From Desulfobacteraceae bacterium Eth-SRB1 (GTDB lineage: Bacteria; Desulfobacterota; Desulfobacteria; Desulfobacterales; ETH-SRB1): 64,000 bases of DNA. Location: NCBI GenBank assembly GCA_004193555.1, contig RPGP01000001.1:192114-256113 (forward strand), read 5' to 3'. The position numbers and the translations under genes were made by a program. Below are positions 3,785 through 53,849 of this stretch, piece by piece (position 1 is the first letter of the stretch; each line of letters starts with the position of its first letter). The notes under the pieces were generated by a model that saw nothing but the letters and a program-made list of their open reading frames with translations, did not search any database and had not been told where the DNA came from.

Positions 3785-3966
3785 AAAAGATGAACGTCCA
3801 ACATCGAACAATGAACGTCCAACATCGAATAATGAAACAAAACACCCAATGAGAAACAAATGTTCAGGGATATTTGGTTGCTGTTTTTCTGACCTCCGAC
3901 CTCTGTTTCTTTGTTTTTCCCATTCGATGTTCAATGTTGGACGTTCGATGTTCGATGTTCATTGTT
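3785..3966. repeat. GAACATC-heptamer palindromic intergenic element (B-type), copy 1
   Basis: The left arm is aaaagatgaacgtccaacatcgaacaatgaacgtccaacatcgaataatg. The right arm is cattcgatgttcaatgttggacgttcgatgttcgatgttcatt. The loop includes a short CCGACCT-type run. Confidence 0.85.
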
Positions 3967-8883: not shown

Positions 8884-9047
8884 CCACGGAGCTAAAGTAA
8901 CAAAGAAAGTTATAAGTGAGCTAAAGTGCCTAAAGTGAGCTAAAGTTAAGGTATGCGCCTTTGGCGCTGCCAATTCTATATAAAAAATGGAGCAAAGCGA
9001 CTCATTAACTTTAGGCACTTTAGCTCACTTTAGGCACTCGTAACTTT
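8884..9047. repeat. CTAAAGT-type palindromic element (A-type), copy 2
   Basis: The element is near-identical to 659-798 and is the reverse complement of 13461-13640. Confidence 0.85.
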
Positions 9048-9055
9048 TTTACTGT

Positions 9056-11107
9056 TTACCCAATAACACAAAGCACATCGCCCTTTGCAACCGAATCGCC
9101 GGTGCTGAAATTGATCGTCTTGATTGTTCCGGCTACCGGAGACGGAAGGGCATTCTCCATCTTCATGGCCTCCAGAATCACAACAGACTCTCCCTTTTTG
9201 ACTGAATCGCCTATATGTTTTTGATAACTTATAATCATGCCGGGCATGGGCGACGTCAGCGGAGCGCCGTCAGCATCACTTTTTTCCCTAACTGCAGGCG
9301 CAGATTCCTTAACCGGTGGAGTAACGGAAGCGGCTGCCGGTCTGGGCGGCGCAAGAGCTGCAGGCGGCGCAGTAGAGGGAGAAAGTACAGGCGTCAGGGC
9401 TGCGGTCGGTACAGCCGGAACAGATGCTGATGCAGGTCTCTGCCGGACATAGCTCACAACCGGCGATCCTCCAGGCTCTTCCACGCCAACTTCAAAGTAT
9501 TCATCATCTACAAACACGTTAAATGTACGCAGGTTTTCCCCTTTGGGAGGAGCCTCTTTTTCCGCCTTTTCAACAAGCCTGCCGGCAAGAGCCTTTGCAA
9601 TCAGCTCCTGCTCAGCCTTAACATCTTCCAGGCTCTTTGGTTTTACTTCCGGAGGAGGCTCCTCCTTGCCGTATTTCCATTTCAAAAATCTTTTTCCCGT
9701 AACAGGATAAAGAGCGTATATAAGGACATCGTCCAGATCCACCGCAAGGCCCTTCACATCCTCTCTGGCCTTTTCCAGCTCAGGCTCCAGGACTTCGGCA
9801 GGCCTGCATGTAATCGGGTTCTCCCCCCTTGAATAACTTTTCAGGACTTTTCCCCTGACCTTTGGATTAATGGGAACAGGGGTTTTTCCATACAGTCCGT
9901 AGCACAGATCTTTTACCTGGTCCGTAATCATCCTGTATTGCTCATTTTCATCATCAAAAAGAACATTGTTAACTGTCTGAACCCCGACGATCTGGCTTGT
10001 GGGCGTTACGAGAGGAACCTGTCCAAGATCTTTTCTTACTTTCGGCAGCTCTGCATATACATCATTTAGCCTGTCCAGGGCATCCATTTCACGCAACTGG
10101 TTAACCAGATTTGAAAGCATTCCCCCGGGAGTCTGGTGGAGAAGCACATTGATATCGATTATTGACATTTTTTTGTCGTCCAGCAGATGCCGGTATTTGG
10201 GAAGCACATCCCTTTCAAGAATCTCGCTTATGGCTCCCAGGAGCTTGATGTCAAATCCGGTATCCCTGTTTGTTCCAAGAAGCGCCATAACAAACGGTTC
10301 AACCGCGGGATGTGACGTGCGGTATGCATAAGGGGACAGACAGGTGTCAATAATGTCAACGCCCGCTTCTATAGCCTTTAAATGAGCCATACAGGCCATG
10401 CCTGATGTAAAATGACTGTGAAGATGCACAGGAACCGAGACAATATCTTTTAACGCCCTGACAATGGCATATGCATCATAAGGGGCAATAAGACCGGCCA
10501 TATCCTTTATGCAGATGCTGTCCGCTCCCATCTTTTTTAGTTCTTTTGCCTTATTTATATAATAGTCAAGGTTGTAAACATCTCCGCCCATCCGGGGCTC
10601 GGTCATTGAATAACAGATACATCCCTGAAAATGTTTTCCGCATTCTTTTATAACAGGCACAACCGTTTCAAAGTTACGAAAGTCATTCAGCGCATCAAAT
10701 GTCCTGAATACATCGATACCGTTTGCGGCCGCTCGATCGACAAAGGCACGGGCAACGTCATCAGCATAATTCCTGTAGCCAACAAGATTTTGCGCTCTTA
10801 GAAGCATGGCAAAAGGGGTCTTCTTTAAATATCTTTTTAAAGTCCTTATCCTTTGCCAGGGGTCTTCATTCAAAAAACGGTGCATTGTATCAAATGTTGC
10901 GCCTCCCCATGTTTCCACAGCCCAGAATCCGACCTCGTCCATCATCTCTGCAACAGAAATCATGTCTTCAGTACGCCCCCTTGTGGCAAACAAAGACTGA
11001 TGACCGTCACGCAAGGACAAATCCATTACCCTAAGAGGGTTTTTTGCCTTAGGCCTGTCTTTGCTGTAATCCATTTTTGTGATCTCTACCTTATTATGGT
11101 CGCTCAT
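9056..11107 (-). CDS. methylmalonyl-CoA:pyruvate transcarboxylase 5S-type subunit (oxaloacetate decarboxylase alpha-like) fused to a biotin carboxyl carrier domain
   Basis: An HMGL-like/PYC_OADA N-terminus (RDGHQS) is followed by a Pro/Ala-rich linker. The C-terminal biotinyl domain carries EAMKMEN. Confidence 0.8.
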   Translation of the reverse strand: MSDHNKVEITKMDYSKDRPKAKNPLRVMDLSLRDGHQSLFATRGRTEDMISVAEMMDEVGFWAVETWGGATFDTMHRFLNEDPWQRIRTLKRYLKKTPFAMLLRAQNLVGYRNYADDVARAFVDRAAANGIDVFRTFDALNDFRNFETVVPVIKECGKHFQGCICYSMTEPRMGGDVYNLDYYINKAKELKKMGADSICIKDMAGLIAPYDAYAIVRALKDIVSVPVHLHSHFTSGMACMAHLKAIEAGVDIIDTCLSPYAYRTSHPAVEPFVMALLGTNRDTGFDIKLLGAISEILERDVLPKYRHLLDDKKMSIIDINVLLHQTPGGMLSNLVNQLREMDALDRLNDVYAELPKVRKDLGQVPLVTPTSQIVGVQTVNNVLFDDENEQYRMITDQVKDLCYGLYGKTPVPINPKVRGKVLKSYSRGENPITCRPAEVLEPELEKAREDVKGLAVDLDDVLIYALYPVTGKRFLKWKYGKEEPPPEVKPKSLEDVKAEQELIAKALAGRLVEKAEKEAPPKGENLRTFNVFVDDEYFEVGVEEPGGSPVVSYVRQRPASASVPAVPTAALTPVLSPSTAPPAALAPPRPAAASVTPPVKESAPAVREKSDADGAPLTSPMPGMIISYQKHIGDSVKKGESVVILEAMKMENALPSPVAGTIKTINFSTGDSVAKGDVLCVIG

Positions 11108-11130
11108 CTTATATTTCTCCTTTTAAATAG

Positions 11131-11262
11131 TGCCTAAAGCGCCTAAAATATGTTAAAGTGCCTAAAGTTAAGGTATCGCTTCGCTCTGTTTTTTATATAA
11201 AATTAGCAAAATTCCATAACTTTAGGCACTTTAGCTCACTTTAGGCACTTGTAACTTTGCTT
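11131..11262. repeat. CTAAAGT-type palindromic element (A-type), copy 3
   Basis: The arms are gtgcctaaagcgcctaaaatatgttaaagtgcctaaagttaagg and taactttaggcactttagctcactttaggcac. The core is tcgcttcgctc. Confidence 0.8.
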
Positions 11263-11469
11263 TTGAAAGGTCTTCATCTGCATCAGATTGCGCATCTGCA
11301 TCTGCGCCTGCCTGCCGCTTATACCCCACAGCTTCAACTGAACCTGAGTTGATAAATACGGAGTCTGATTAAAAGCATCGGCAGGCTGATTACATATAAT
11401 CTCTTCCCCTGCCCCGATATAATTTATAACCGCAGATATTGCGGCTGCCATTTTCTTTTTGTTTTCCAT
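11236..11469 (-). CDS. small hypothetical protein between transcarboxylase 5S and 12S genes
   Basis: This is a 77-aa ORF in operon position. Its last 6 codons and stop lie inside the A-type repeat arm. No family was recognised with confidence. Confidence 0.35.
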   Translation of the reverse strand: MENKKKMAAAISAVINYIGAGEEIICNQPADAFNQTPYLSTQVQLKLWGISGRQAQMQMRNLMQMKTFQKQSYKCLK

Positions 11470-11485
11470 CTTGAGTGCTCTTTTA

Positions 11486-11883
11486 AGTTACAAATGACTA
11501 AAGTGACTACTGTAAGTGCCTAAAGTGAGCTAAAGTATATTAAAGTGCCTAAAGTTGTGGTACGCCTTCGGCGTGTTAATTTTAAAGTTATAAGCGCCTA
11601 AGGTAATGTAGTGAACTACTGGCTATCTTTACTTCGATTTCTACAAAACTTTGACAGTCTCGTAAAAAGTCGAAAAATACCGTTTTTCGTCATTCCGGTA
11701 AAAACCGGAATCCAGTCTTTTCAAGTAGTTACAGAACATCTGGACTCCGGTTTTCACCGGAGTGACGACTTTTTACGAGTTCATCAACTTTAGCTCACTT
11801 GCAGTTTTCAAATAAGCAGCGCCGAAGGCGCATTCCTTAACTTTAGGCACTTTAATATACTTTAGGCACTTTAGCTCACTAAA
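11486..11883. repeat. composite A-type element: 4HB-gene deletion derivative with a nested TIR element
   Basis: The left arm and 5' region match 24696-24770. Bases 11607-11655 match the last ~50 nt of the 4HB gene at 25085-25134. The right arm matches 25176-25222. Confidence 0.8.
11659..11779. repeat. nested small element with 14-bp terminal inverted repeats CTCGTAAAAAGTCG / CGACTTTTTACGAG
   Basis: The 14-bp TIRs are perfect. Internal hairpins are attccggtaaaaaccggaat and ctccggttttcaccggag. Related ends occur at 22755-22880, 55026-55158 and 55925-55950. Confidence 0.7.
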
Positions 11884-13437
11884 TTACACCGGTATATTTC
11901 CATGTTTTTTAGGAGGTCTGGTCTCCCGCTTGCCGCACATTATTTCGAGGGCATCGATTAAACGGGATCTCGTTTCTGCCGGCACAATCACGGCATCAAT
12001 ATAGCCCCTGCTTGCCGCGCAATAGGGGTTTGAAAAAAGATCCTCATACTCTTTGATTTTTTCTTTGCGCATAGCGTCAGAATTTTCGGCCGCCTTAATC
12101 ACTCTACGATGGATGATATTAGCCGCGCCGCCGGCTCCCATTACCGCGATCTGAGCGCTTGGCCACGCAAATGCCATATCAGCGCCGAGATGCTTTGAAG
12201 ACATTGCAATATAAGCGCCTCCGTAATCCTTGCGGGTAATAAGAAGCATTTTCGGAACCGTAGCTTCTGAATAACACCAGAGAAGTTTTGCGCCGTGCCG
12301 TATAATCCCTCCCCATTCCTGATGGCTCCCTGGAAGATAACCCGGGACATCGGCTATAGTCAGTATCGGGATGTTAAAGGAATCGCAAAAACGTATAAAC
12401 CGGGTAGCTTTGTCCGAAGCATCAATATCAAGACATCCCGCAAGAAACATGGGCTGGTTTGCGATAATGCCGATGGTTCTCCCGTTCAGCCTGGCAAAAC
12501 AAACAATTATATTCCTGGCATAATGCTCATGCGGCTCAAAAAATTCTCCATTGTCAACTATCGATCTTATCACATCAGTCATGTCATATGGCTGGTTCGG
12601 ATTGTCAGGAATAATTGAATTAAGAGCGAAATCTGTCCGCCCGCTAACATCACCTGTATCCTCAACAGGCGGATCCTCCATGTTGTTTGACGGCAGATAT
12701 GAAAGCAGTTTTTTTATTTTATTTATAGCATCTTCATCGTTTTCACCCGCAAAATGGGCAACCCCGCTTTTTTCGTTGTGCGCCATGGCTCCGCCGAGAT
12801 CCTCAAATGTAATTTCCTCTCCTGTAACAGACTTTATAACCTCAGGGCCGGTAATAAACATATAACTGCTGTTTTTTACCATAAAAACAAAATCCGTCAT
12901 GGCCGGTGAATAAACTGCTCCGCCGGCTGTGGGCCCCATTATCGCCGATATCTGGGGAATAACGCCCGAACAGGCTGAATTACGAAAAAAAATCTCCCCG
13001 TATCCGGAAAGGGAATCAATCCCTTCCTGTATTCTGGCTCCTCCGGAATCATTAATCCCGACAAAAGGCACGCCTGCCTTTAGGGCTAAATCCATAACCT
13101 TACAGATCTTTTTAGCCTGCATTTCACCAAGGCTGCCCGCCCTGGATGTAAAATCCTGTGAAAAGGCAAAAACAGGCCTTCCGTCAACAAGACCATGGCC
13201 TGTTATCACGCCGTCGGATGGAATCTCAACCTTTTCCATACCGAAATTTACGCATCTGTGCGCAACAAACATATCGATTTCCCGGAATGTATCAGAATCG
13301 AATAAATGATTTAATCTTTCCCTTGCGGTCAATTTTCCTTTTTCATGCTGCTTTGCAACCAGCTTTTCGCCGCCCATCTGCATGATTTTCTTTTCCCGCT
13401 TTTTCAAATCCTTTATTCCATCTTCCACAATACCCAT
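11884..13437 (-). CDS. methylmalonyl-CoA carboxyltransferase 12S subunit / propionyl-CoA carboxylase beta-type
   Basis: The 517-aa ORF belongs to the carboxyl transferase family, with motifs GGARIQEG and ITRKDYGGAY. Confidence 0.85.
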   Translation of the reverse strand: MGIVEDGIKDLKKREKKIMQMGGEKLVAKQHEKGKLTARERLNHLFDSDTFREIDMFVAHRCVNFGMEKVEIPSDGVITGHGLVDGRPVFAFSQDFTSRAGSLGEMQAKKICKVMDLALKAGVPFVGINDSGGARIQEGIDSLSGYGEIFFRNSACSGVIPQISAIMGPTAGGAVYSPAMTDFVFMVKNSSYMFITGPEVIKSVTGEEITFEDLGGAMAHNEKSGVAHFAGENDEDAINKIKKLLSYLPSNNMEDPPVEDTGDVSGRTDFALNSIIPDNPNQPYDMTDVIRSIVDNGEFFEPHEHYARNIIVCFARLNGRTIGIIANQPMFLAGCLDIDASDKATRFIRFCDSFNIPILTIADVPGYLPGSHQEWGGIIRHGAKLLWCYSEATVPKMLLITRKDYGGAYIAMSSKHLGADMAFAWPSAQIAVMGAGGAANIIHRRVIKAAENSDAMRKEKIKEYEDLFSNPYCAASRGYIDAVIVPAETRSRLIDALEIMCGKRETRPPKKHGNIPV

Positions 13438-13460
13438 TGTTATTTCCTTTCGTTAAGCAA

Positions 13461-13640
13461 GTTACGAGTGCCTAAAGTGAGCTAAAGTGCCTAAAGTTAA
13501 TGAGTCGCTTTGCTCCATCTTTTATATAGAATTGGCAGCGCCAAAGGCGCATACCTTAACTTTAGCTCACTTTAGGCACTTTAGCTCACTTGTAACTTTT
13601 TTTGTTACTTTAGCTTACTTTAAATCTCTGTGTTCTCCGT
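13461..13640. repeat. CTAAAGT-type palindromic element (A-type), copy in inverse orientation
   Basis: The element is the reverse complement of the 8884-9047 element, including the outer ccacgg...gttac flank. Confidence 0.85.
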
Positions 13641-13642
13641 GG

Positions 13643-14617
13643 TTAATAAAGTTCAAGCAGCCTACATGCCGCATTTATGGGCGCAATCAACCCTTTTTCA
13701 ACAGCCCTTTTCATTTCCGGCAACTCTCTTTTAACATCAGTGTTGTTATAAAACCGTTGTTTAAGCCCTTCTTCAAGCAGAGACCACATCCAGTCAACAG
13801 CCTGTCTCTTCCTCTTTGCCTCTAACTCTCCCGTAGCGGCGAGCTTTTCCATGTGAAGTAATATGGTCTTCCATATCTCATCTATGCCTCTCATTTCAAG
13901 TGCGCTGCAGGTTAAAACAGGAGGCGTCCATGTCGGAGATGAAGGTATCAAAAAATGCAGGGCAGATTCAACCTCTTTTCTCGCTTTTTCAGCCTTTTCA
14001 ATATTGTCGCCGTCAGCCTTGTTTATGGCAACAGCATCGGCCAGCTCTGAAATCCCCTTTTTCATTCCCTGGATTTCATCACCGGCTCCGGCCAGCATAA
14101 GAACCAAAAAAAAATCGACCATGGAGGCCACGGCGGTCTCAGACTGGCCTACCCCGACTGTCTCAACAATAATTACATCAAAACCGGAGGCTTCGCACAC
14201 AAGTATTGTTTCCCTGGTTTTTCCTGCAACCCCTCCCAGGGTGCCGCCCGAAGGAGAAGGCCGTATAAACGCCCTTTCCTCAACAGAAAGCTTTTCCATG
14301 CGGGTTTTGTCTGCCAGGATACTCCCCCCGCTCCTCTGGCTGCTTGGATCAACTGCAAGAACCGCCACACGATGCTCCCTGTTCACAAGCGTCATGCCAA
14401 GGTTCTCAATAAATGTACTCTTACCAGCGCCCGGAACCCCTGTAATGCCAAGCCGAACACCTTTTCCCGTGTATGAAAGCAGCTCATCAACAATTATCCG
14501 CGCCAGATCCTGATGGGCCGGAAGGGAGCTTTCAATCAGCGTAATGGTCTTTGCAAGCGCCAGCCTGTCATGCTCCAGCACACCCTGGATATAATATTGA
14601 TAATTATCCGCAATCAT
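13643..14617 (-). CDS. meaB: methylmalonyl-CoA mutase-associated GTPase MeaB (ArgK family)
   Basis: The P-loop GVPGAGKST and motifs ETVGVGQSE and NKAD are present. The gene is adjacent to the mutase. Confidence 0.85.
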   Translation of the reverse strand: MIADNYQYYIQGVLEHDRLALAKTITLIESSLPAHQDLARIIVDELLSYTGKGVRLGITGVPGAGKSTFIENLGMTLVNREHRVAVLAVDPSSQRSGGSILADKTRMEKLSVEERAFIRPSPSGGTLGGVAGKTRETILVCEASGFDVIIVETVGVGQSETAVASMVDFFLVLMLAGAGDEIQGMKKGISELADAVAINKADGDNIEKAEKARKEVESALHFLIPSSPTWTPPVLTCSALEMRGIDEIWKTILLHMEKLAATGELEAKRKRQAVDWMWSLLEEGLKQRFYNNTDVKRELPEMKRAVEKGLIAPINAACRLLELY

Positions 14618-14656
14618 TTTTTAGTATTTAGATTTAATCCTTACAAAGTTGTTTTG

Positions 14657-14795
14657 AAAGATGAACGTCCAACATCGAACATTGAACGTCGAACATCGAA
14701 TAATGATGTCGCTCCGCTCCGCCAGTTTATAAATTAGCAGAATACCTTATTCAACATTCGATGTTGGACGTTCGATGTTCGACGTTCATCTTTTT
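14657..14795. repeat. GAACATC-heptamer palindromic element (B-type), copy 2
   Basis: Arms built of gaacgtc/caacatc/gaacatt units flank the core aataatgatgtcgctccgctccgccagtttataaatt. The right end supplies the mutase stop codon. Confidence 0.85.
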
Positions 14796-16906
14796 TCTAA
14801 AGCCTTCAGTGTCTTATTCGCCGATTCGGTAATAACCGTGCCGGGCCCAAATATGCCTGCCACGCCTGCTTTATAGAGAAAATCATAATCCGCGGGCGGT
14901 ATTACTCCTCCAACAAACACAATAATATCCCCGCCGCCTTTCTTTCTTAACGCGTCTATAAGCTGCGGAACAAGAATCTTGTGCCCCGCGGCAAGACTCG
15001 ACACACCAACGGCATGCACATCGTTTTCAACAGCCATATTGGCGGCTTCCTCCGGAGTCTGAAACATGGGGCTGATATCTACATCAAATCCAAAGTCAGC
15101 ATACGCTGTGGCGACAACTTTAATACCACGATCATGACCGTCCTGCCCCATCTTTGTCATAAGTATCCTCGGCCTTCTCCCCTCCTTTTCCATAAAGGCC
15201 TCAGTCCTCTTCCTGAGGGAAGCGATTATCTCGCTGTCTCCATATTCAGCAGAATAAACACCGGATATACACCGGCTTACAGCCACATACCTTCCAAAAA
15301 CCTTTTCCATGGCATCTGTGATTTCTCCAACGGTTGCCCTTGCTCTAACTGCAGGGATGCATACTTCGAGAAGATTTCCTCCTGATTCAGCACATTTCGT
15401 AACGGCCTCAAGAACCTTTTTCACAGCAGCGGAACCACGTTTTGCCCTGATCTCTTTTAATCTTACAATCTGCTCATCACGGACAGAATCTGAAACCTCT
15501 AAAACATCAAGCCGGGCTTCTTCTTCTATACGGTATTTATTTACACCAACAATAACATCCCTGCCCTGGTCTATCCTTGCCTGCTTTATGGCTGCGGACT
15601 CTTCAATTCTCAGCTTCGGCATGCCGGATTCAATAGCCCTGGCCATGCCGCCAAGCTCTTCAACCTCTTTCATGATCTTTTTCGACTCCCTGATTATTCC
15701 ATTGGTCAGGGCTTCAATATAATATGAGCCTCCAAGAGGATCCACAACATGACATATCTGGGATTCGTCCTGAACTATTAACTGTGTATTCCTGGCGATC
15801 CTCGCTGACAATTCGGTTGGAAGCCCAACAGCTTCGTCAAAAGAGTTTGTATGAAGAGACTGGGTTCCTCCAAGGGTAGCGGACAGGCATTCAAGGGTGG
15901 TTCGTATTATATTATTATAAGGGTCCTGCTGGGCGAGACTCCAGCCGGATGTCTGGCAGTGGGTTCTTAACATGAGCGATTTGGGATTTTTAGGTTCAAA
16001 CCTGCTTATTATCTCAGACCACAAAAAACGGGCTGCCCTTAACATGGCTATTTCCATGAAAAAATTCATTCCTATCCCGAAGAAAAAGGAAAGGCGCGGA
16101 GCAAAAGTGTCGATATCAAGCCCTGCATCAAGCGCTGCTCTGACATATTCCAGCCCGTCGGCAAGAGTAAATGCTGTCTGAAGAACAGAATTTGCTCCTG
16201 CCTCCATCATATGATAACCGCTTATACTTACGGTGTTGTATTTAGGCATATTTTTTGAGCAAAAACCTATGATATCGGAGACTATCCTCATGGACGGTTT
16301 TGGAGGATAAATATAGGTATTTCTTGTAAGATATTCCTTTAATATATCGTTCTGTATCGTGCCCATGAGCTTATCCTGGGGCACACCCTGCTCCTCGGCC
16401 GCGACTATATATCCGGCAAGCACAGGCAAAACAGCGCCGTTCATGGTCATGGAAACAGACATCTTGTCCAGCGGTATTCTGTCAAAAAGGATCTTCATAT
16501 CCTCCACAGAGTCAATTGCCACTCCTGCCTTGCCGATATCGCCAACAACCCTTGGATGATCCGAATCATAACCCCTGTGAGTAGCCAGATCAAAGGCCAC
16601 TGAAAGTCCTTTCTGACCTGCGGCAAGGTTCTTTCTATAAAATTCGTTAGACTCCTTTGCCGTGGAAAAACCTGCATACTGACGAATAGTCCATGGACGG
16701 CCGGCATACATAGTGGCTTTCACCCCGCGAACATACGGAGCAAACCCGGGAAATGTATTCACGCATTCAAGCCCTTCCAGATCTTCGGCAGTATAAAGCG
16801 GCTTTACATTTATCCCTTCCGGAGTCATCCAGTTCAGTGAGTCAAGAGGTTTCCCCCTCAACTCCTTTTCCGCTAATTCAATCCATTTATTTTTATCAGG
16901 ATGCAT
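14786..16906 (-). CDS. methylmalonyl-CoA mutase, catalytic domain fused to B12-binding domain
   Basis: Mutase large-subunit motifs and a C-terminal GQDGHDRG cobalamin-binding motif are present. The start is moved to MHPDKNKW at 16906 because the upstream 18 codons are repeat-arm sequence. Confidence 0.9.
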
Positions 16907-16938
16907 AGCTATAATATATTTCCTTTTACAAGGTCGTT

Positions 16939-17080
16939 TAAAAAGATGAACGTCCAACATTGAACATCGAACATCGAACGTCGAATAATGATGTCGCTCC
17001 GCTCCGCCAGTTTATAAATTGGCAAAATACCTTATTCAACATTCGATGTTGGACGTTCGATGTTCGATGTTCATTTTTTT
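16939..17080. repeat. GAACATC-heptamer palindromic element (B-type), copy 3
   Basis: The element is about 90 percent identical by eye to 14657-14795, including the core. Confidence 0.85.
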
Positions 17081-17123
17081 CTGTCCCTCAATCCCTTAAC
17101 ACTTAGCACCTAACACCTAATCC

Positions 17124-17525
17124 CTATCTTTCACACAATTCAACCAGAACCCCGTTTGTCGATTTAGGGTGCAGAAAAGCTATTTTTGCGCCCCCCGCGC
17201 CCTTCCTCGGCTTTTCATCAACAAGCCTTATCCCTTTCTCCTTTAATTCCGCCAGCGCCTCTTCGATATTTTCCACAAGAAAGGCAACGTGATGTATCCC
17301 CTCCCCCCTCTTTTCCAGATATTTTCCGATAGGCCCATCAGGGTCGGTAGATTCAAGCAGCTCGATCTCACTTTCTCCAATCGGGAAAAAAGCTGTAATA
17401 AGCTTTTCATCCGCCATTACTTCACTGTCTTCAAGCCAGAGCCCTAAACGGTCTCCCCAGAATTTTTTTCCTTTATTGATGCTATTTACTGCAATCCCTA
17501 AATGATCAATTTTTATTACCTTCAT
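17124..17525 (-). CDS. mce: methylmalonyl-CoA epimerase (VOC/glyoxalase family)
   Basis: The ORF has IDHLGIAV and GIHHVAF motifs. The start is set at MKVIKIDH because upstream codons are repeat sequence. Confidence 0.8.
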   Translation of the reverse strand: MKVIKIDHLGIAVNSINKGKKFWGDRLGLWLEDSEVMADEKLITAFFPIGESEIELLESTDPDGPIGKYLEKRGEGIHHVAFLVENIEEALAELKEKGIRLVDEKPRKGAGGAKIAFLHPKSTNGVLVELCER

Positions 17526-17548
17526 GAAATCTCCTTTTAAAAGGTTCA

Positions 17549-17689
17549 AACTAAAGTGCCTAAAGTGAGCTAAAGTGCCTAAAATGCCTAAAGTTAAGGA
17601 GTCGCTCCGCTCCGGTTGTTTCCAAATTGAGGAGCGAAGCGACAACAACATTCATCATTCGATGTTGGACGTTCGATGTTCATCTTTTT
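17549..17689. repeat. chimeric element: CTAAAGT arm + GCTYCGCT core hairpin + GAACATC arm
   Basis: The left arm is A-type and the right arm is B-type. The central 13-bp stem is gtcgctccgctcc/ggagcgaagcgac. The element is the reverse complement of 23045-23178. Confidence 0.85.
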
Positions 17690-17719
17690 CAATCCCCTAA
17701 TCCTCTAATCCTCTAATCC

Positions 17720-17761
17720 AACACCTAACACTTAACACCTAACACTTAACACCTAACACTT
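17720..17761. repeat. 6 x heptamer array AACACCT/AACACTT
   Basis: Two heptamers alternate perfectly. The array is preceded by TAATCCTC octamers and abuts the aminotransferase stop codon. Confidence 0.85.
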
Positions 17762-20557: not shown

Positions 20558-20685
20558 TAAAAGATGAACGTCCAACATCGAACATCGAATAATGAAATCG
20601 CTTCGCTCCGCCGGTTTATAAATTGGCAGAATACCTTATTCAAAATTCGACGTTGGACGTTCGATGTTCGATGTTTATTTTTTTC
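20558..20685. repeat. GAACATC-heptamer palindromic element (B-type), copy 4
   Basis: The core is aataatgaaatcgcttcgctccgccggtttataaatt. The element is followed by the shared module cagcgctactgctggg...gctacgatcc, also present at 22441-22490. Confidence 0.85.
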
Positions 20686-21845: not shown

Positions 21846-22437
21846 AAAAGATGAACGTCCAACATCGAACATTGAACATCCAACATCGAATAATGCTATC
21901 GCTTCGCTCCTCAATTTATTTCTGTTTCTTTTCAGCCGTTCTGATACTCGTAACGAAAATCTTAATTAATTCCTCTGTTTCCTGTAAAATATCATCTAAT
22001 AGTTCAGGTTTTTTAATTAAAGGCACACGCTGAATAAGTTTTAACCATCGCTGGCTCTCCCTGAGTTCCTTTAATGAGATACGAAGCTTATGGATAAAGT
22101 CCTTTGGGGACTCCGCTGCCTGAGCTTCACCATGGTTTGGATAAGGTGAAGTTCCCGATCTTAACAATTGGCCAGCAACATGGTTGCCTGTTCTGGTATT
22201 TGGCATCTGTTCAACGATCTTTATTATTCGCACCGAATACTCGAGCAGCCTTTCTTCCAGATCATATGTTTGTTTCTTCATCTTTTCCCATTCAACGTTC
22301 GATGCTCATCCATTTGGATTGTTGATTGATGATTTTCTCGTTCCCACGCTCTTGCGTGTGAATTCATATTTGAAGGAGCGAAGCGACATCATCATTCAAA
22401 ATTCGATGTTGGACGTTCGATGTTCGATGTTCATTTT
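21846..22437. mobile_element. B-type hairpin element carrying a four-helix-bundle gene in its loop
   Basis: The left arm is 21846-21894 plus core tcgcttcgctcctc. The right arm is 22371-22437 (gaaggagcgaagcgac plus cgatgttggacgttcgatgttcgatgttcat). ORF 21916-22281 lies between them. Confidence 0.7.
21916..22281 (-). CDS. four helix bundle protein (23S rRNA intervening sequence protein family)
   Basis: The 121-aa ORF has motifs LLRSGTS, KDFIHKLRISLKELRE and W characteristic of the TIGR02436/PF05635 family. Confidence 0.85.
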   Translation of the reverse strand: MKKQTYDLEERLLEYSVRIIKIVEQMPNTRTGNHVAGQLLRSGTSPYPNHGEAQAAESPKDFIHKLRISLKELRESQRWLKLIQRVPLIKKPELLDDILQETEELIKIFVTSIRTAEKKQK

Positions 22438-22682: not shown

Positions 22683-22960
22683 TTAATTCCTCTTTTTTAT
22701 CACGAAAACACGAAAGTACGAAAACACGAAGAAAAGCATAAAAAAGTATGATGAACCCGTAAAAAGTCATTCCAGAACCGCATCAAGCCCCACCCCTTCC
22801 CTTTCCTCTTCGTGGCCTTCGTGTTCTTCGTGGTACAACACACTCTGTGGTAAAAAATCGACTTTATACGAAACCGTCAAAATTTTATTTTATAAACTTA
22901 TGCACCCTGTTTTGTCAAAACAAAATGGCTTGACTATGCGCCGCATTAAGATATAAATTG

Positions 22961-23040
22961 TTCAGGAGTTCAGGAGTTCAGGAGTTCAGGAGTTCAGGAG
23001 TTCAGGAGTTCAGGGGTTCAGGGGTTCAGGGGTTCAGGGG
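22961..23040. repeat. 10-unit octamer tandem array (6 x TTCAGGAG then 4 x TTCAGGGG)
   Basis: A direct count gives 80 nt with period 8. Confidence 0.9.
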
Positions 23041-23044
23041 ACTG

Positions 23045-23178
23045 AAAAAGATGAACATCGAACGTCCAACATCGAATGATGAATGTTGTTGTCGCTTCGC
23101 TCCTCAATTTGGAAACAAACTGAGCGAAGCGACTCATTAACTTTAGGCACTTTAGCTCACTTTAGGCACTTTTTAACT
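23045..23178. repeat. chimeric element: GAACATC arm + GCTTCGCT core hairpin + CTAAAGT arm
   Basis: The first ~78 nt are identical to the reverse complement of 17549-17689. The core stem is gtcgcttcgctc/gagcgaagcgac. Confidence 0.85.
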
Positions 23179-23264: not shown

Positions 23265-24695
23265 ATGGAATTTGAATCTGTTATAGGGCTTGAAATACAT
23301 GCCCAGCTAAAGACAAAAACAAAAATCTTCTGCGGCTGTTCAACAAAATTCGGAGCCCCTCCCAATACCCATACCTGTCCGGTATGTCTTGGCATGCCCG
23401 GGGTGCTCCCTGTGCTCAACAAAAAGGTTGTTGAATACAGTTTGCGCATGGCGCTTGCCACAAATTGCAAAATCAACAGGCAAAGCAGATTTGCCAGGAA
23501 AAACTACTTTTATCCTGACCTTCCAAAAGGGTACCAGATCTCCCAGTATGAACTGCCGATTGCGGAAAACGGGCATGTCGATATTGAAATCAACAGCCAT
23601 AAAAAAAGGATCGGAATCACAAGAATTCACATGGAAGAGGATGCAGGCAAACTGACTCACAATCCTGACAGGCCGCTTAGTATGGTCGATTTCAACAGGA
23701 CAGGGGTTCCTCTTATTGAGATAGTCAGCGAGCCGGATCTAAGATCCCCTGAAGAAGCCGGGGCATACTTAAGGCAGCTCAGGTCGATTGTTCGTTATCT
23801 CAGTATATGCGACGGCAACATGGAGGAGGGAAGCTTCAGGTGCGATGCAAACGTATCGATCAGGCCGATTGGCTCTGAAACTTTCGGCACGCGCGCAGAG
23901 CTTAAAAATTTAAATTCCTTTAAACATGTTGAAAAGGCGCTGCAATACGAAATAACAAGGCAAAAAGAAATTTTATCTGACGGCGGTGAGGTAATCCAGG
24001 AAACAAGGCTATGGAGCCCTGATAAAAACAGGACGACTTCAATGCGATCAAAGGAGGAGGCGCACGATTACAGGTATTTTCCAGACCCTGATCTTTTGCC
24101 TCTTGTAATTGACGATACATGGATTAATAATGTAAAAAAAAGCCTGCCCGAACTGCCGGATGAAAGAAAAATCCGTTTTATAAACAAATTTTTCCTTTCT
24201 TCAAACGACGCCGAAGCATTGACATCCAGCCGGGAGCTTGCAGAATATTTTGAGGAATGTGTAAAACAATTTCCGAATCCAAAACAGGTTTGCAACTGGG
24301 TCATGGGGGAGCTGCTCGGACTATTGAATGCAGAAGAAAAAACCATAAATGAATCCCCGGTTTCAACCGGCGATCTTGCCGGGCTGCTCAAATTAATCGA
24401 CAAAGGGGTCATAAGCGGCAAAATCGCAAAAACGGTATTTGAAGAAATGGCAAAAACAGGCCGTGCCCCTGAAAAGATTGTAAAGGAAAAACAGCTTGTA
24501 CAGGTCACGGACGTATCTGCCATTGAAGAGGTGGTATCAAAGATACTTTCAAACAACCCCAAAGAGGTGGAGGCTTACAAAAACGGCAAAACCAAACTTA
24601 TGGGTTTCTTCGTCGGCCAGGTTATGAAAGAAACAAGGGGCAAGGCCAATCCGAAGATCGTGAATGAAGTCCTGAAAAAGAGGCTGATAAATTAA
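23265..24695 (+). CDS. gatB: Asp-tRNA(Asn)/Glu-tRNA(Gln) amidotransferase subunit B
   Basis: The N-terminus is [15 protein letters not shown] and the [10 protein letters not shown] motif is present. The ORF is full length at 476 aa. Confidence 0.95.
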
Positions 24696-25222
24696 GTGCC
24701 TAAAATGCCTAAAGTATGTTAAAGTGCCTAAAGTTGTGGTACGCCTTCGGCGTGCTAATTTTAAAATTATAGGATGAAAGGTGGATAACAAAAAATTTGC
24801 TGCAGCGCTTGAAAAACGAACTCGTGAATTTGCGGTGCGGATTATTCACTTATCTTCGAAATTGCCGAATACACATGAAGGCAGAGTAATACGGAATCAG
24901 ATTACTAAATCCGGTACATCTATAGGCGCTAATTATCGTGAGGCAAATCATTCCAGAAGCAAAGCAGATTTTAAAAATAAAATCAAGATTTCTGAAAGTG
25001 AAGCAAGCGAAACTCAATATTGGATTGAAGTTGTTGTAGAGGCAAAAATGTTGCCATGGAAACAGGTAAAAGCAGAACACAAAGAATGTGGCGAACTATT
25101 GGCCATCTTTACTTCGATTTCTGCAAAACTTTAACTCATTTACAACTTATAACTTTAAAATAGACAGAATACATTAACTTTAGGCATTTTAGGCACTTTA
25201 ATATACTTTAGGCACTTTAGTT
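24696..25222. mobile_element. A-type hairpin element carrying a four-helix-bundle gene in its loop
   Basis: The element starts on the base after the gatB stop. The left arm is 24696-24745 and the right arm is 25176-25222; they are complementary over ~30 bp in best register. ORF 24781-25134 lies inside. Confidence 0.7.
24781..25134 (+). CDS. four helix bundle protein (23S rRNA intervening sequence protein family)
   Basis: The 117-aa ORF has a GTG start and motifs QITKSGTSIGANYREA, DFKNKIKISESEASET and YW. Confidence 0.85.
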   Translation: MDNKKFAAALEKRTREFAVRIIHLSSKLPNTHEGRVIRNQITKSGTSIGANYREANHSRSKADFKNKIKISESEASETQYWIEVVVEAKMLPWKQVKAEHKECGELLAIFTSISAKL

Positions 25223-25237
25223 TAGAAGGAGGAATTT

Positions 25238-26929
25238 TTGAAAAATTTATTTAATAAACTCATCAGGCTGGCTTTCGTTAGCCTTGCCTTTATAATAATT
25301 ATAGATTCACCAGCTCTTGCGTCCGCAAAACAAAGCACGATCGCAATCGTGCCGTTTACCATGAATGCGGAAAAGGATCTTACCTATCTGCAGGAAGGCA
25401 TCCTTTCAATGCTTACATCCCGCCTTTCATGGGAAAACAAGGTCTCTGTTATTGCCAGGCAGGAAACAGCCGCGGCTGTTAAAACTGTTGCTCCCCCTTT
25501 AAATGAGGCAAAGGCGCGTAAAATCGGCGAAATGCTCAAGGCCGATTACGTGCTTTTCGGCTCTCTTACCATATTCGGAAACAGCGTGAGCCTGGATGCA
25601 AAAATAGTGGATATTCCCAATACCAGACCACCTGTTTCAGTTTTTAACCAGAGCCAGGGCATGGAAGAGGTGATCCCCAGGATAAACTTGTTTGCCGAAG
25701 AGATAAATGAAAAGGTGTTTAACAGAAAAACCGCTGTCAGGCAGCTTCCGCAGCAAAGAGTTCCTACGCAAATGCCGTCCCAGTATATGCATCCTGAGCG
25801 CCTGCTTTCAGGAGAATTTGTCGGGCCGGAAGCTGGAATTGGAGGAGGGCAGGGAGCAGGACAAGGAGGCTCTTCCTTTATAATGACCGGGCGCAGCGAC
25901 AGGGCGCCGGGATTCTGGAAAAGCAAAAATTTCAGATTTCAGATAAGGGGTGTGGCGCTTGGAGATGTGGACGGGGACGGCAAAACAGAGACCGTAATCA
26001 TATCAAACCATGAAATCCATATTTACAGGTCTGAAGCAGGCCGTTTTTTAAAAATAAAAGAGATTGTCGGCGCAAAACATCATAAATATATCGCTGTTGA
26101 CATTGCCGATATACAAAAAAACGGGATTGCGGAGATCTTTATCACATGTTTAAACACAACCAGAAAAAGCCTTCAATCGTTTGTCCTGGAATGGGACGGA
26201 AGCGGGTTTGCCCCTGTTGCAAAGGATAAAAACTGGTATTTCAGGGTTCTTCACCGTCCTGAACTGGGCCATATGCTTACAGGCCAGAAAAAGGGGGTTT
26301 CAGACCTTTTTCTTGGCGGCGTTTACGAACTGACATGGACAGGCAGCGGATATGAAGCGCAAAACAGGATCAGCCTGCCAAAAGAGACCACGGTTTTCGG
26401 CTTTGCCATGGGTGACATATTAAATGACGGCGGCGAATCATTTGTCACACTGGATGATCACGACCGGCTCCGGCTCTTTAGTGTGGCGGGAGAGCGGGAA
26501 TGGAAAAGCGAAGACAGGTTCGGCGGCAGTGAAAATTATATTGATCTAGATTCCGCTGAAAAAAAGAGCGAATTTGAAGACCGCATCTACCTGCCCCACA
26601 GGATCTTTGTAACAGACTTAAACCAGGACGGCAAAACCGAGGTAGTTGTCATAAAACACAGCTCTATTTCAGGCCGGCTCTTCAGGCGGTTTCGCCAGTA
26701 CGGCAGCGCTCAGTTTGAATCCCTGTCCTGGAACGGTCTGGGACTTTCTGAAAACTGGCATACCCGCAAGGTGTCCGGCTATATCTGCGACTATGCCATA
26801 GGAGATATAAATAATGACGGGGGGCTCGACCTTGTGGCCGCAATTGTGAGCAAACGTGATGTAATCGGGCAAAAAGCAAAAAGCTCGATTATAACCTATG
26901 ACCTCAGCCCGCTTATCGGGAAAAAATAA
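25238..26929 (+). CDS. FG-GAP/VCBS repeat lipoprotein-like protein with LpoB/CsgG-like N-terminal domain
   Basis: The ORF has a signal peptide and repeated DxDGDGKTE / DxNxDG calcium-binding propeller motifs. It has a TTG start after AAGGAGG. Confidence 0.7.
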   Translation: MKNLFNKLIRLAFVSLAFIIIIDSPALASAKQSTIAIVPFTMNAEKDLTYLQEGILSMLTSRLSWENKVSVIARQETAAAVKTVAPPLNEAKARKIGEMLKADYVLFGSLTIFGNSVSLDAKIVDIPNTRPPVSVFNQSQGMEEVIPRINLFAEEINEKVFNRKTAVRQLPQQRVPTQMPSQYMHPERLLSGEFVGPEAGIGGGQGAGQGGSSFIMTGRSDRAPGFWKSKNFRFQIRGVALGDVDGDGKTETVIISNHEIHIYRSEAGRFLKIKEIVGAKHHKYIAVDIADIQKNGIAEIFITCLNTTRKSLQSFVLEWDGSGFAPVAKDKNWYFRVLHRPELGHMLTGQKKGVSDLFLGGVYELTWTGSGYEAQNRISLPKETTVFGFAMGDILNDGGESFVTLDDHDRLRLFSVAGEREWKSEDRFGGSENYIDLDSAEKKSEFEDRIYLPHRIFVTDLNQDGKTEVVVIKHSSISGRLFRRFRQYGSAQFESLSWNGLGLSENWHTRKVSGYICDYAIGDINNDGGLDLVAAIVSKRDVIGQKAKSSIITYDLSPLIGKK

Positions 26930-30243: not shown

Positions 30244-30271
30244 TCCAGTAATTACAATTTGATTTTCTTTT

Positions 30272-30351
30272 TTCGTGTTTTCGTGTTTTCGTGTTTTCGT
30301 GTTTTCGTGTTTTCGTGTTTTCGTGTTTTCGTACTTTCGTGCTTTCGTGAT
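30272..30351. repeat. 10-unit octamer tandem array (7 x TTCGTGTT + 3 variants)
   Basis: A direct count gives period 8. The array lies between the convergent DUF5615 and mutL genes. Confidence 0.9.
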
Positions 30352-30452: not shown

Positions 30453-32330
30453 CTAAACTACTCTCCCAAACAATTTCTCAATTTCTCCTTTGCTCCACCT
30501 TATCCATGTAGGCCGGCCATGCGGACAGTGGGAAGAATTTTTGCATTTATCAAGCTGGTCGAGAAGACCTTTCATCTCTTTATCGGAAAGCGGATGGTTT
30601 GCCCTGATTGCCCCGTGGCAGGCCATGAGTATCAGGCATTTATCAATGGCTTTTTCAATGCCGGGCCCGAAACCTGTTTCTGCAATTTTTTCCGTAATCT
30701 CGATAACGAGCGGCCTGATCTCCCTGCCGGCAAGAACCGCCGGCACAGACTTTACCACAAAGGTATCTGATCCAAAGGGCTCTATTTCAAGACCGGTCTC
30801 CTTTAAATCAGGGATCAGCTTTTCAAGTATGCCTGCCTCTTTATAGCCCAGGTCAACTGTTTCAGGAACAAGCAGTCTCTGGGATTCTGTTTTCCCTGCC
30901 ATGGATCTGTTTTTCAGATGCTCATAAACAATTCTCTCATGTGCTGCATGCTGATCAATAATCAGAAGCTCCTTGTCCGACTCGCAGAGTATATATGTGT
31001 CATGAAACTGGCCGATTACCCGCAAATCGCCAACACCTTTTTTATCCCAGATTTGCGCCTGTTCGGAGGCTGGAGGTCGGAGGTCAGAGGCCAGAGGTCG
31101 GATGCCAGAGGTCGGAGATCGGAGATCGGAGGTCAGGGGTCGGCGGTCGGCGGTCGGCGGTCGGAAGTCGGAGATCAGAGGTCGGAGGTCAGAGGTCAGG
31201 GGTCGGAGGCCAGAGGTCGGAGGTCGGAAGTCGGAAGTCGGATCGGAAAAGGGTGTTGGAAAGCCGCTGTAACGGGAAGCAGGCTCGGAAACGGAAAGCC
31301 TGTCCTGCACGGACAATGGACCGGCGCTCCATCCTGCCCTTTCAGCGATTTCCAGTCCCCTTTTTACAGCTTGTTTTACAGCATAATGAACCATGTTCTG
31401 CTGCGCAAACCTGACTTCCTGCTTTGCCGGATGAACATTTACATCCACGCTGTCAAATGGCAGGTCAATAAAAAGAACCGCCACGGGGAACCGCCCTTTC
31501 ATCAATCTTTGTTCATATCCTTCAAACAGGGCATGCGAAATAATCCTGTCCCGCACAAACCTTCCGTTTACATACACATAGATTCCCCGGGATGTAGTCC
31601 GGTCAACTCCGGGAGATGATATCCAGCCGGCCACAGAAATATTATCGTCATCAAATTTTATCCTGTGCAACCCCCTTTTTAAACCGCTGCCGAGGACATC
31701 CACGACCCTGTCAAAAGGATCTGTTGCAACAGGCCGGCCTTTGACAAGCCTTCCGTTGTGATTCAGCAAAAATTTCACATCAGGCCTGCCCAGACCGATG
31801 CTCGAAATAATATCTGCGATATGCCCGAACTCTGTATTGACGCTCTTTAAAAACTTTCGTCTTGCAGGCACATTAAAGAAAAGCTGCTTTACTGTAACCA
31901 TGCTGCCTGTGGGCGCGCCGATTTGAGAAACCTTTTTAATCTTTCCTCCATGGATTAGTATCTCGGCGCCTGCATCAGAGGCCTTATCCCTCGTAACAAG
32001 GGAAAATTTTGATACCGAAGCAATGCTCGGCAGCGCCTCGCCCCTGAAGCCGAGACTCTTTATGGAAAACAGATCGTCGTTTTTGTAAATCTTACTGGTC
32101 GCATACCTCTCCAGGGAAAGAAGCGCATCGTCTTTGTTCATGCCGCAGCCGTTGTCTGAAACACGAATTAATGACCTGCCGCCGTTTTCAATCTCGATTG
32201 CTATCCGGCTGCTGCCCGCATCCAGCGCATTTTCGACAAGCTCCTTTACAACAGAAGCCGGCCTCTCCACGACTTCGCCCGCAGCTATCCTGTTTGAAAG
32301 GTTTTCGGGAAGTATTCTTATTTTCGACAT
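30453..32330 (-). CDS. mutL: DNA mismatch repair endonuclease MutL
   Basis: The N-terminal GHKL ATPase (IAAGEVVERPASVVKELVENALDAG) and the C-terminal endonuclease motif DQHAAHERIVYE are present. The linker carries a 7-aa periodic insert. Confidence 0.9.
   Translation of the reverse strand: MSKIRILPENLSNRIAAGEVVERPASVVKELVENALDAGSSRIAIEIENGGRSLIRVSDNGCGMNKDDALLSLERYATSKIYKNDDLFSIKSLGFRGEALPSIASVSKFSLVTRDKASDAGAEILIHGGKIKKVSQIGAPTGSMVTVKQLFFNVPARRKFLKSVNTEFGHIADIISSIGLGRPDVKFLLNHNGRLVKGRPVATDPFDRVVDVLGSGLKRGLHRIKFDDDNISVAGWISSPGVDRTTSRGIYVYVNGRFVRDRIISHALFEGYEQRLMKGRFPVAVLFIDLPFDSVDVNVHPAKQEVRFAQQNMVHYAVKQAVKRGLEIAERAGWSAGPLSVQDRLSVSEPASRYSGFPTPFSDPTSDFRPPTSGLRPLTSDLRPLISDFRPPTADRRPLTSDLRSPTSGIRPLASDLRPPASEQAQIWDKKGVGDLRVIGQFHDTYILCESDKELLIIDQHAAHERIVYEHLKNRSMAGKTESQRLLVPETVDLGYKEAGILEKLIPDLKETGLEIEPFGSDTFVVKSVPAVLAGREIRPLVIEITEKIAETGFGPGIEKAIDKCLILMACHGAIRANHPLSDKEMKGLLDQLDKCKNSSHCPHGRPTWIRWSKGEIEKLFGRVV
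31064..31245. repeat. ~26 tandem heptamers (plus strand YRGAGGT; coding strand ACCTCYG) inside the mutL linker
   Basis: A direct count was made. The array is translated as eight SDLRPPT-like 7-aa units. The same unit type occurs intergenically at 3889-3905 and 18975-19000. Confidence 0.9.
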
Positions 32331-36410: not shown

Positions 36411-36547
36411 TAAAAGATGAACGTCGAACATCGAACGTTCAACATCGAATTTTGAATAAGGAATTCTACCAATTTATAAACTGGCGGAGCGAAGCGATTT
36501 CATCATTCGATGTTCAATGTTCGACGTTCGATATTCGATGTTCAAAA
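36411..36547. repeat. GAACATC-heptamer palindromic element (B-type) with core in inverse orientation
   Basis: The core aatttataaactggcggagcgaagcgatttc is the reverse complement of the B2/B3 core. Confidence 0.8.
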
Positions 36548-36625: not shown

Positions 36626-36660
36626 TTAGCACGCCGAAGGCGTACCACAACTTTAGGCAC
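36626..36660. repeat. solo fragment identical to the inner left arm of the 4HB-carrying A element
   Basis: The reverse complement gtgcctaaagttgtggtacgccttcggcgtgctaa is identical to 24722-24756. Confidence 0.85.
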
Positions 36661-36671
36661 TTTTTACTCAT

Positions 36672-53670: not shown

Positions 53671-53697
53671 TTTTGAAAATAAATTGCTTGATTATTC

Positions 53698-53778
53698 AAC
53701 TGCCGCTCCCTACGCTGGTATAATCCAGGTCAGGTTCAAAGGGTATTTTCTCAGCCCTGTCAGGCACCCCCGCATATT
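53698..53778 (-). ncRNA. TPP (THI-box) riboswitch
   Basis: The minus-strand sequence is gggggtgcctgacagggctgagaaaataccctttgaacctgacctggattataccagcgtagggagcgg. It contains the conserved GGGGUGC, CUGAGA, ACCCUUUGAACCUGA and UACCAGCGUAGGGA elements. Confidence 0.9.
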
Positions 53779-53849
53779 TTTAATAATCTATCCGGCTTTA
53801 TCTATATAATCAAGCAATAATTTTACAACAGCTCTTTCTGTTTTCCGGG

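Follow-up and report, generated by a model that had tools for sequence, protein, structure and literature searches.

The intervening sequences (IVSs) of 23S rRNA genes, known from Leptospira, Coxiella, Xanthomonas and Brucella, are the closest described elements to the locus reported here. The IVS of Coxiella is bounded by a 28-bp terminal stem, within which RNase III cleaves, and carries a sense-oriented S23p ORF (PMC4990558). Three or four tandem GACAGAT heptamers are located just before the S23p start codon (PMC4990558). The same study relays an old proposal that the IVS ORF might serve mobility, and its authors report no detectable physiological consequence of the IVS beyond 23S rRNA fragmentation. 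To our knowledge, no function has been established for the 23S IVS ORFs since their description in the early 1990s.

Other systems share some of the features seen here. The cyanobacterial STRR elements are arrays of 7-bp units with the capacity to form hairpins and occupy spacers of co-transcribed genes, hupS-hupL among them; the arrays are described as having no known function (PMC2670836), and neither function nor origin is known to us to have been settled since about 1990. In REPIN-RAYT systems (PMC3116915), the lineages of the repeat and of the gene match. RAYT proteins are tyrosine transposases of the IS200/IS605 type that act on single hairpin-forming REP sequences. Avd, the accessory protein of diversity-generating retroelements (DGRs), is a pentameric, nucleic-acid-associated partner protein that binds RNA; it has a homologous fold and belongs to a homologous family (PMC10053308). 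One study records PF05635 genes within cas loci and does not mention repeats (PMC3936711). No paper describing PF05635 cassettes outside rDNA with cognate inverted arrays was found among the open-access papers and preprints searched, and an earlier description elsewhere is possible.

The window analysed here is the whole 64,000-nt stretch of DNA from Desulfobacteraceae bacterium Eth-SRB1. The cassette under study lies between two protein genes and, together with its hosts, comprises the following features:

23265 to 24695, + strand: gatB, the upstream host gene (Pfam GatB_N and GatB_Yqey, and sequence)
24694 to 24735, + strand: left arm of 4-5 sense-oriented units with TAAAGT/TAAAAT cores and GCC or ATGT spacers
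24736 to 24780, + strand: leader with a small GC hairpin and an AT-rich stretch containing a weak RBS, GAAAGG
24781 to 25134, + strand: ORF of 117 aa with a GTG start, four-helix-bundle subfamily A (PF05635, TIGR02436)
25135 to 25175, + strand: short 3' trailer, from the ORF stop codon to the right arm
25176 to 25220, + strand: right arm of 4-5 antisense-oriented units with ACTTTA/ATTTTA cores
25226 to 26929, + strand: downstream host gene, an FG-GAP repeat gene, with its RBS AAGGAGG and a TTG start at 25238

An earlier note, made from the sequence alone, had claimed an ORF enclosed by inverted CTAAAGT-type arms between two protein genes, and this arrangement held (arrays at 24694-24735 and 25176-25220). 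The note had placed the start of the element on the base after the gatB stop codon; the left arm (AAGTGCCTAAAATGCCTAAAGTATGTTAAAGTGCCTAAAGTT) begins at 24694, overlapping the stop codon TAA (24693-24695). The claimed end, just before the next RBS, held: the right arm ends at 25220 and is followed by the RBS AAGGAGG at 25226-25232 and the TTG start at 25238. The downstream FG-GAP gene is intact despite the insertion. TRF assigns both arms a period of 9, with 4.4 copies in the left arm and 4.8 copies in the right arm. In RNA letters the unit of subfamily A is CUAAAGUGC, and the unit of a second subfamily, B, is GAACAUC.

The arms are reverse-complementary in two registers of the repeat search, one of 33 nt at 94% (24700-24732 with 25188-25220) and one of 22 nt at 100% (24694-24715 with 25177-25198), which upholds the claimed complementarity of about 30 bp. 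The whole element, folded as a 541-nt stretch, gives -146.3 kcal/mol with its outer arms paired, compared with -111.3 +/- 5.8 kcal/mol for shuffled sequences (z -6.0). A construct of the arms alone with a short loop folds at -44.9 kcal/mol (z -9.3). The earlier note had stated that its claim would fail without a stable arm-arm helix, and this check was passed with both constructs. The GC hairpin of the leader is formed by ACGCC-UUC-GGCGU at approximately 24741-24753. A consensus scan, the only method used for this purpose, predicted no + strand promoter or terminator within the cassette. An Rfam scan at the gathering threshold returned no match to the cassette or to the hairpins; a TPP riboswitch, located elsewhere in the window, was the sole match, and no rRNA was found.

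The cassette resembles the 23S IVS in several respects. Both encode a PF05635 protein from a sense-oriented ORF in the loop of a long terminal stem, and in Coxiella the 5' arm likewise places tandem heptamers before the start codon. The two are of similar size (~430 nt in Coxiella and 527 nt here), lack a promoter of their own and are sporadically distributed. In contrast to the IVS, the host here is the spacer of a protein-coding operon rather than a 23S rRNA helix, and the arms are part of a repeat family that is dispersed and has many copies without an ORF. Cleavage by RNase III has been shown for the IVS and is only inferred here. The claim of an IVS-like topology outside rDNA thus held for anatomy and context, and is strengthened by the Coxiella 23S IVS; the suggestion that the element may be processed from the transcript rests on inference, as no RNA data are available.

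The 117-aa product exceeds the cut-offs of both family models, with E 8e-21 and 74.7 bits against PF05635 (cut-off 33.8) and E 2.6e-25 and 88.8 bits against TIGR02436 (cut-off 24), confirming the predicted 117-codon four-helix-bundle ORF of this family. Its closest solved relative is PDB 2RLD (E 3e-20), which was deposited as five chains. Another relative, Xcc0516, is an assembly of five four-helix bundles (cited in the context of PMC4990558 and PMC10053308). A homopentameric ring for the window protein is inferred only from these two relatives. The family motif is quoted as GxxRxxxSxxxNxxE (PMC3936711), and the aligned stretch in the 117-aa protein is SGTSIGANYRE; the S..S...N..E block is conserved in the alignment, and retention of the G and R positions is not obvious. 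The subfamily-A ORF has thousands of close homologs (identities of 65-93%), and the wider PF05635/TIGR02436 family comprises ~9,000 clusters at 50% identity. Comparison of the 76 intact ORFs of subfamily A gave a median dN/dS of ~0.1 and a pS of ~0.78, which means that synonymous sites are saturated. The protein is therefore functional and the copies are of ancient divergence. No PADLOC anti-phage defence model matched at E <= 0.1, and a phage collection yielded only two matches, both unannotated. A possible link to the HEPN superfamily was dropped, since a HEPN survey does not mention the family (PMC3710099).

In many cassettes, the stretch from the arm to the start codon contains no obvious Shine-Dalgarno sequence.

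The window is full of short-unit arrays, as detected by TRF and motif searches. With at most one mismatch allowed, 39 occurrences of the motif TGCCTAAAGT were counted in the window, where 4.9 +/- 2.2 would be expected; the arms are therefore members of a repeat family and not a chance palindrome. A second cassette, of subfamily B, and about a dozen ORF-less hairpins of both arm types, with arms ~100 nt apart, were identified:

21850 to 22434, - strand: second cassette, subfamily B, with a 121-aa PF05635 ORF at 21916-22281
21898 to 21915 and 22370 to 22389: inner inverted repeat of the subfamily-B cassette
21850 to 21890 and 22402 to 22434: outer inverted heptamer arrays (GAACATC/CAACATC) of the subfamily-B cassette
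660 to 790: ORF-less A-type hairpin, with near-identical copies at 8914-9038 and 13467-13591 (inverted) and a variant at 11129-11250
14663 to 14787: ORF-less B-type hairpin with GAACATC arms; others at 3790-3966, 16948-17072, 20566-20675 and 36419-36543
17551 to 17690: chimeric hairpin, A-type on the left and B-type on the right; the two arm types are in the reverse order at ~23046-23172
11495 to 11874, + strand: decayed subfamily-A cassette that retains arms and leader, with the ORF reduced to its last ~45 nt

The subfamily-B cassette has the same orientation as its neighbours queA and DUF2065. Three A-type ORF-less copies share ~96% identity over ~135 nt, and the A-type hairpin folds at -64.6 kcal/mol (z -8.7). 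The ORF-less hairpins occupy spacers of co-oriented housekeeping genes, including all junctions of the methylmalonyl-CoA operon. The decayed copy, which is interrupted by unrelated sequence, is antisense to its flanking genes; it has kept the leader of the cassette (11555-11590), a related form of which is also present in the ORF-less hairpins. Beyond the cassettes themselves, 51 TAAAGT arrays were counted in 374 kb from genomes that carry subfamily A, compared with 6 in 477 kb of control loci, and these 51 include 11 ORF-less convergent pairs. No further four-helix-bundle paralogs were found in the 160 fetched loci.

This organisation resembles a REPIN-RAYT system in two ways: inverted copies of the repeat surround the gene, and the repeat also occurs dispersed, as inverted doublets without a gene. 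The gene here, however, belongs to PF05635 rather than to the IS200/IS605-like (Y1) transposases and has no known enzymatic activity. Further differences are the tandem-array arms, the many paralogous subfamilies per genome and the strong sense bias.

The cassette is an insertion between the gatB stop codon and the RBS of the next gene, within a co-oriented gene pair. Insertion is shown by four relatives in which the FG-GAP gene directly follows gatB, with no four-helix-bundle gene between them. These relatives are metagenomic loci found with GatB, the homologs of which are named Desulfobacterales; in the closest, L082, GatB is 78% identical. The spacers measure ~20 nt in L082, ~130 nt in L083, ~7 nt in L084 and ~37 nt in L086, compared with 542 nt in the window. 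Other short-unit arrays are present in the 130-nt spacer of L083 and in the gatB 3' spacers of L081, L085 and L113, which shows that array families of different kinds have repeatedly colonised this junction. The cassette junctions show no target-site duplication, and no transposase or reverse transcriptase was seen in or near the cassettes, whose neighbourhood contains gatB, the FG-GAP gene, queA, DUF2065, tgt and an aminotransferase gene.

The same architecture recurs across phyla. A sample of 80 subfamily-A loci, with proteins 64-78% identical, was drawn from species-representative genomes of Desulfobacterota, Planctomycetota, Acidobacteriota, Nitrospirota, Nitrospinota, Calditrichota and Bacteroidota; Scalindua, Pirellulales and Phycisphaerae were also named within these taxa. 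A significant inverted repeat brackets the ORF in 63 of the 78 usable loci, and a TAAAGT-type unit is the building block of the arms in all bracketed loci. Unit polarity is strict, with sense units in the left arm (mean counts 4.9 sense and 1.1 antisense) and antisense units in the right arm (5.5 and 1.6, respectively). The median is five units per arm, 64 of 77 left arms contain four to six, and the units are mostly spaced 9-10 nt apart. In most cases the arms directly adjoin the stop codon of the upstream gene and the ORF's own start codon.

Orientation relative to the host genes is equally regular. The ORF points the same way as its upstream neighbour at 65 of 70 loci and as both neighbours at 53 of the 63 loci that are informative on both sides, and at no locus is it antisense to both. 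Several genera of Flavobacteriaceae share the same insertion site, as do members within Pirellulales groups. The shared Flavobacteriaceae sites fit long-term vertical retention better than active mobility.

Each subfamily has its own unit. Subfamily B has thousands of homologs that are 85-94% identical to the second paralog, and GAACATC-type arrays bracket it in three of three unrelated contexts (L161, L166 and L169): after a fumarase gene, in the spacer between a SIS regulator gene and an Fe-S protein gene, and between the ATPase (T2SSE) and platform (T2SSF) genes of a pilus/secretion-type system (type IV pilus/type II). A distant set comprised 16 plasmid homologs (33-45% identity) from Cyanobacteriota, Chloroflexota, Bacteroidota, Spirochaetota and Bacillota. 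Approximately 14 of these 16 have inverted tandem heptamer arrays of their own, which often contact the start and stop codons, with units that include TAATTCG, CAATTCG, AAGTCGG, CAAGTCG, AGATTTT, GTAAAAA, GATTAGT, GAAGGAT and AATCGTA/AATCCCC. Protein clusters follow the unit (83% identity for TAATTCG, 77% for CAATTCG and 79% for AAGTCG). Most of the distant homologs are sense-oriented in operons, for example in drmD-MmeI, helicase-methylase, csx2-cas1, DUF1156-Swt1, hsdS-hsdR and RND adaptor-permease pairs. Unit orientation relative to the ORF appears to be flipped between the Planktothrix locus L171 and the Gloeocapsa locus L179. Unit sequence, polarity and copy number are thus conserved within a subfamily and differ between subfamilies, a co-variation of gene and repeat that could possibly arise from co-inheritance alone.

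The cyanobacterial homologs examined here are flanked by heptamer arrays of the STRR kind. In the searched literature, STRR elements have no associated gene, whereas each array family here has a matching four-helix-bundle gene, and the phenomenon seen in the window reaches well beyond cyanobacteria. The locus is one member of a large pattern that appears to be undescribed.

These surveys bear on the remaining claims of the earlier note. It had held that its proposal would fail if most paralogs elsewhere lacked flanking inverted repeats; the check was passed in subfamily A (63/78), subfamily B (3/3) and the distant plasmid set (~14/16). The idea of a self-contained and possibly mobile cassette is supported by the empty orthologous junctions of the four relatives and by the ~96%-identical ORF-less copies. 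The proposed mRNA context is supported by the bias for sense orientation and by the lack of a predicted + strand promoter or terminator inside the cassette.

Selection on the pairing of the arms could not be demonstrated. Mismatches on the sense strand show no excess of G.U over A.C (56 versus 59). The order of unit variants is not mirrored between the arms (54 matches versus 55.4 +/- 2.2 after permutation), and repetition of the variants in the same left-to-right order does not exceed permutation either. With the variant order unmirrored, the stem at many loci would therefore have small internal loops. Conversely, the unit sequence of the arms is kept although synonymous sites are saturated, which indicates that a pairing requirement alone is insufficient as a cause. 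Because these tests found no selection on exact pairing, the conserved feature is likely to be the oriented array, with ~5 units per side, rather than the helix itself.

We favour an interpretation of the locus as an IVS-type cassette, a single representative of a very widespread class of elements, and assign it a probability of roughly 0.6; cleavage, binding and the mechanism of insertion are all inferred. The class would be defined by a promoter-less PF05635 gene and inverted arrays of ~5 copies of a subfamily-specific 7-10 nt unit. In this model, the cassette would be transcribed by read-through from gatB, and the arms of the RNA would pair as a stem of ~35-40 bp with the ORF in the loop. 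By analogy with the Coxiella 23S IVS, RNase III would cut the stem; the RNA of the ORF would thereby be liberated and the host cistrons parted from each other, both undamaged. The encoded protein, a ring-shaped pentamer in its solved relatives, would recognise the arrays of its own unit; such recognition would account for the co-variation of gene and repeat. The ORF-less hairpins would be non-autonomous derivatives that are kept or spread in trans. The similarity between ~5 units per arm and a pentameric relative is no more than suggestive, and a connection between them is merely possible.

Several observations weigh against this interpretation. No RNA data exist, and cleavage, read-through and translation are each inferred; exact pairing is not demonstrably selected. 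The Coxiella S23p ORF is apparently untranslated, and the excised RNA is quickly degraded (PMC4990558). There is no sign of a target-site duplication or a transposase, and no catalytic activity of the protein is known. The missing obvious Shine-Dalgarno sequence in many cassettes and the apparent flip of unit orientation in L171 relative to L179 also count against it, as do the shared Flavobacteriaceae sites and a co-variation that co-inheritance alone could explain.

The main rival is a foldback or MITE-like transposon acting at the DNA level, which remains possible. In that case, a transposition machinery acting in trans would bind the arrays as its terminal sites, the part of the four-helix-bundle protein would be that of an accessory that binds DNA or of a passenger, and the hairpin in the RNA would be incidental. 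The locus has in common with such elements its terminal inverted repeats, short non-coding derivatives, intergenic site and presence/absence polymorphism. The empty orthologous sites, the dispersed near-identical ORF-less copies and the chimeric elements with arms from two families support this rival, as do the oriented arrays that show neither selection for complementarity nor strand asymmetry. The spacing of subfamily-A units, 9-10 nt, is also close to one helical turn of DNA. However, no cognate transposase was seen in or near the cassettes, which are surrounded by housekeeping genes, the junctions lack a visible target-site duplication, and what is conserved is the unit rather than an exact sequence. 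The 7-nt units of most other subfamilies do not match the helical repeat, and a DNA transposon would not need the sense bias unless expression of the ORF is itself essential. In sum, the absence of pairing selection favours this rival and the orientation bias disfavours it.

Less credible is a domesticated regulatory module of benefit to the host, in which the hairpins would be processing or stability elements between cistrons and the protein an RNA-binding regulator; we regard it as unlikely. It would be consistent with the purifying selection on the protein, with the sites retained across Flavobacteriaceae genera and within Pirellulales groups, with the ORF-less hairpins at each methylmalonyl-CoA operon junction, and with the role in transcript stability or translational coupling that has been proposed for STRR (PMC2670836). 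Against it stand the sporadic occurrence at the gatB junction, where relatives have no element or unrelated arrays, the near-identical, decayed and chimeric copies within one genome, and the diversity of the unrelated host operons, which include defence loci. Moreover, expression of the Coxiella IVS or of S23p in E. coli caused no growth defect (PMC4990558). That the gene is a DGR accessory protein (Avd) located beside repeats by chance can be almost entirely ruled out. PF05635 is indeed a family that resembles Avd (PMC10053308), but no reverse transcriptase gene and no pair of template and variable repeats lie nearby; the gene stands alone between inverted arrays of short tandem units, which are not a TR/VR pair. 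Three further candidates were rejected on inspection of the elements: an integron cassette (no attC and no array of cassettes, which are solitary in operons), a CRISPR (spacers absent) and an intrinsic terminator (T-run absent).

The IVS-type cassette, our preferred reading, can be extended to a bolder one, which we think more apt to be wrong than right. Here, PF05635 pentamers and short-unit arrays would form a pan-bacterial partnership of protein and repeat, similar to REPIN-RAYT but with a non-transposase, Avd-like binder. As part of this reading, each subfamily would recognise its 7-10 nt unit and help to propagate or maintain it, and the 23S IVS, the cyanobacterial STRR hairpins and the dispersed intergenic hairpins of the window would have a common origin. 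The partnership may even reach arrays that invade structural RNAs and protein linkers, for example that of mutL.

Despite its size, the PF05635/TIGR02436 family is annotated only as "four helix bundle protein". The bracketing arrays, the subfamily-matched unit and the sense placement in operons provide a testable hypothesis for its function, namely that the protein recognises its own array. The pattern ties together the 23S IVS, the heptamer hairpins and a large family of unknown function. It also suggests that the PF05635 genes in CRISPR-cas, restriction-modification, DISARM and further operons are more likely to be hitch-hiking cassettes than functional partners, a distinction that matters for annotation by guilt-by-association.

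ORF-less hairpins with TAAAGT-type (A-type) or GAACATC-type (B-type) arms occupy all gene junctions of the methylmalonyl-CoA operon on the minus strand. This operon, two chimeric hairpins and the other features of the window considered here are listed below.

Features of the window
9056-17651, minus strand: methylmalonyl-CoA operon genes (carboxylase/biotin carrier, carboxyltransferase, MeaB, mutase and glyoxalase-type epimerase)
17551-17690 and 23046-23172: chimeric hairpins, with A-type left and B-type right arms and with the mirror arrangement
36630-36665, minus orientation: remnant of the subfamily-A leader hairpin with one arm unit (…GCACGCCGAAGGCGTACCACAACTTTAGGCAC…), adjoining a B-type hairpin
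22960-23038, 30270-30349, 22701-22833 and 17691-17761: further short-unit array families
31063-31242, within the minus-strand mutL ORF (30453-32330): TCGGAGG heptamer array, approximately 25 copies in 180 nt
53690-53781, minus strand: TPP riboswitch (RF00059, 70.2 bits)

Both chimeric hairpins share an inner GTCGCTTCGCTCC...GGAGCGAAGCGAC stem, and this common stem suggests that the element families have recombined. The decayed cassette, a subfamily-A copy that has lost most of its four-helix-bundle ORF, contains a further palindromic repeat at 11640-11770 (…TCGTCATTCCGGTAAAAACCGGAATCCAG…CTGGACTCCGGTTTTCACCGGAGTGACGA…), which resembles a small inserted element of its own. The further array families include GTTCAGGA and TTTTCGTG (10 copies each), an inverted CACGAAAA / CTTCGTGG pair, and arrays of AATCCTCT and of AACACCT. 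No four-helix-bundle gene for these families was found within the window; their cognate genes, if they exist, would have to be elsewhere in the genome.

The heptamer array in mutL is in frame and free of stop codons, encoding a PPTSDLR-like 7-aa repeat in the linker that separates the DNA_mis_repair domain (aa 211-326) from the MutL_C domain (aa 439-581). These heptamers share their GGTCGGA register with the arms flanking a four-helix-bundle gene in Nostoc punctiforme (L184).

In relatives, the short-unit arrays directly 3´ of gatB (loci L081, L083, L085 and L113) differ from lineage to lineage, and include an ATTAAGTTG/TAATCAACT pair, AGTCCGT (four copies) with an inverted partner, CACGAAAA (four copies) and CGGGGTG (six copies). 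This junction has probably been colonised more than once. Four Flavobacteriaceae genomes of different genera (L068, L071, L076 and L078) carry the subfamily-A cassette at one orthologous junction, where the flanking protein ends are also the same. This shared placement indicates that the cassette has long been retained there by vertical descent.

Distant four-helix-bundle homologs are located inside plasmid defence operons (L171-L182), in DISARM drmD-MmeI, helicase-methylase, csx2-cas1, cas2-cas1, DUF1156-Swt1 HEPN and hsdS-hsdR contexts. Homologs placed in such operons might mislead annotation by guilt-by-association.
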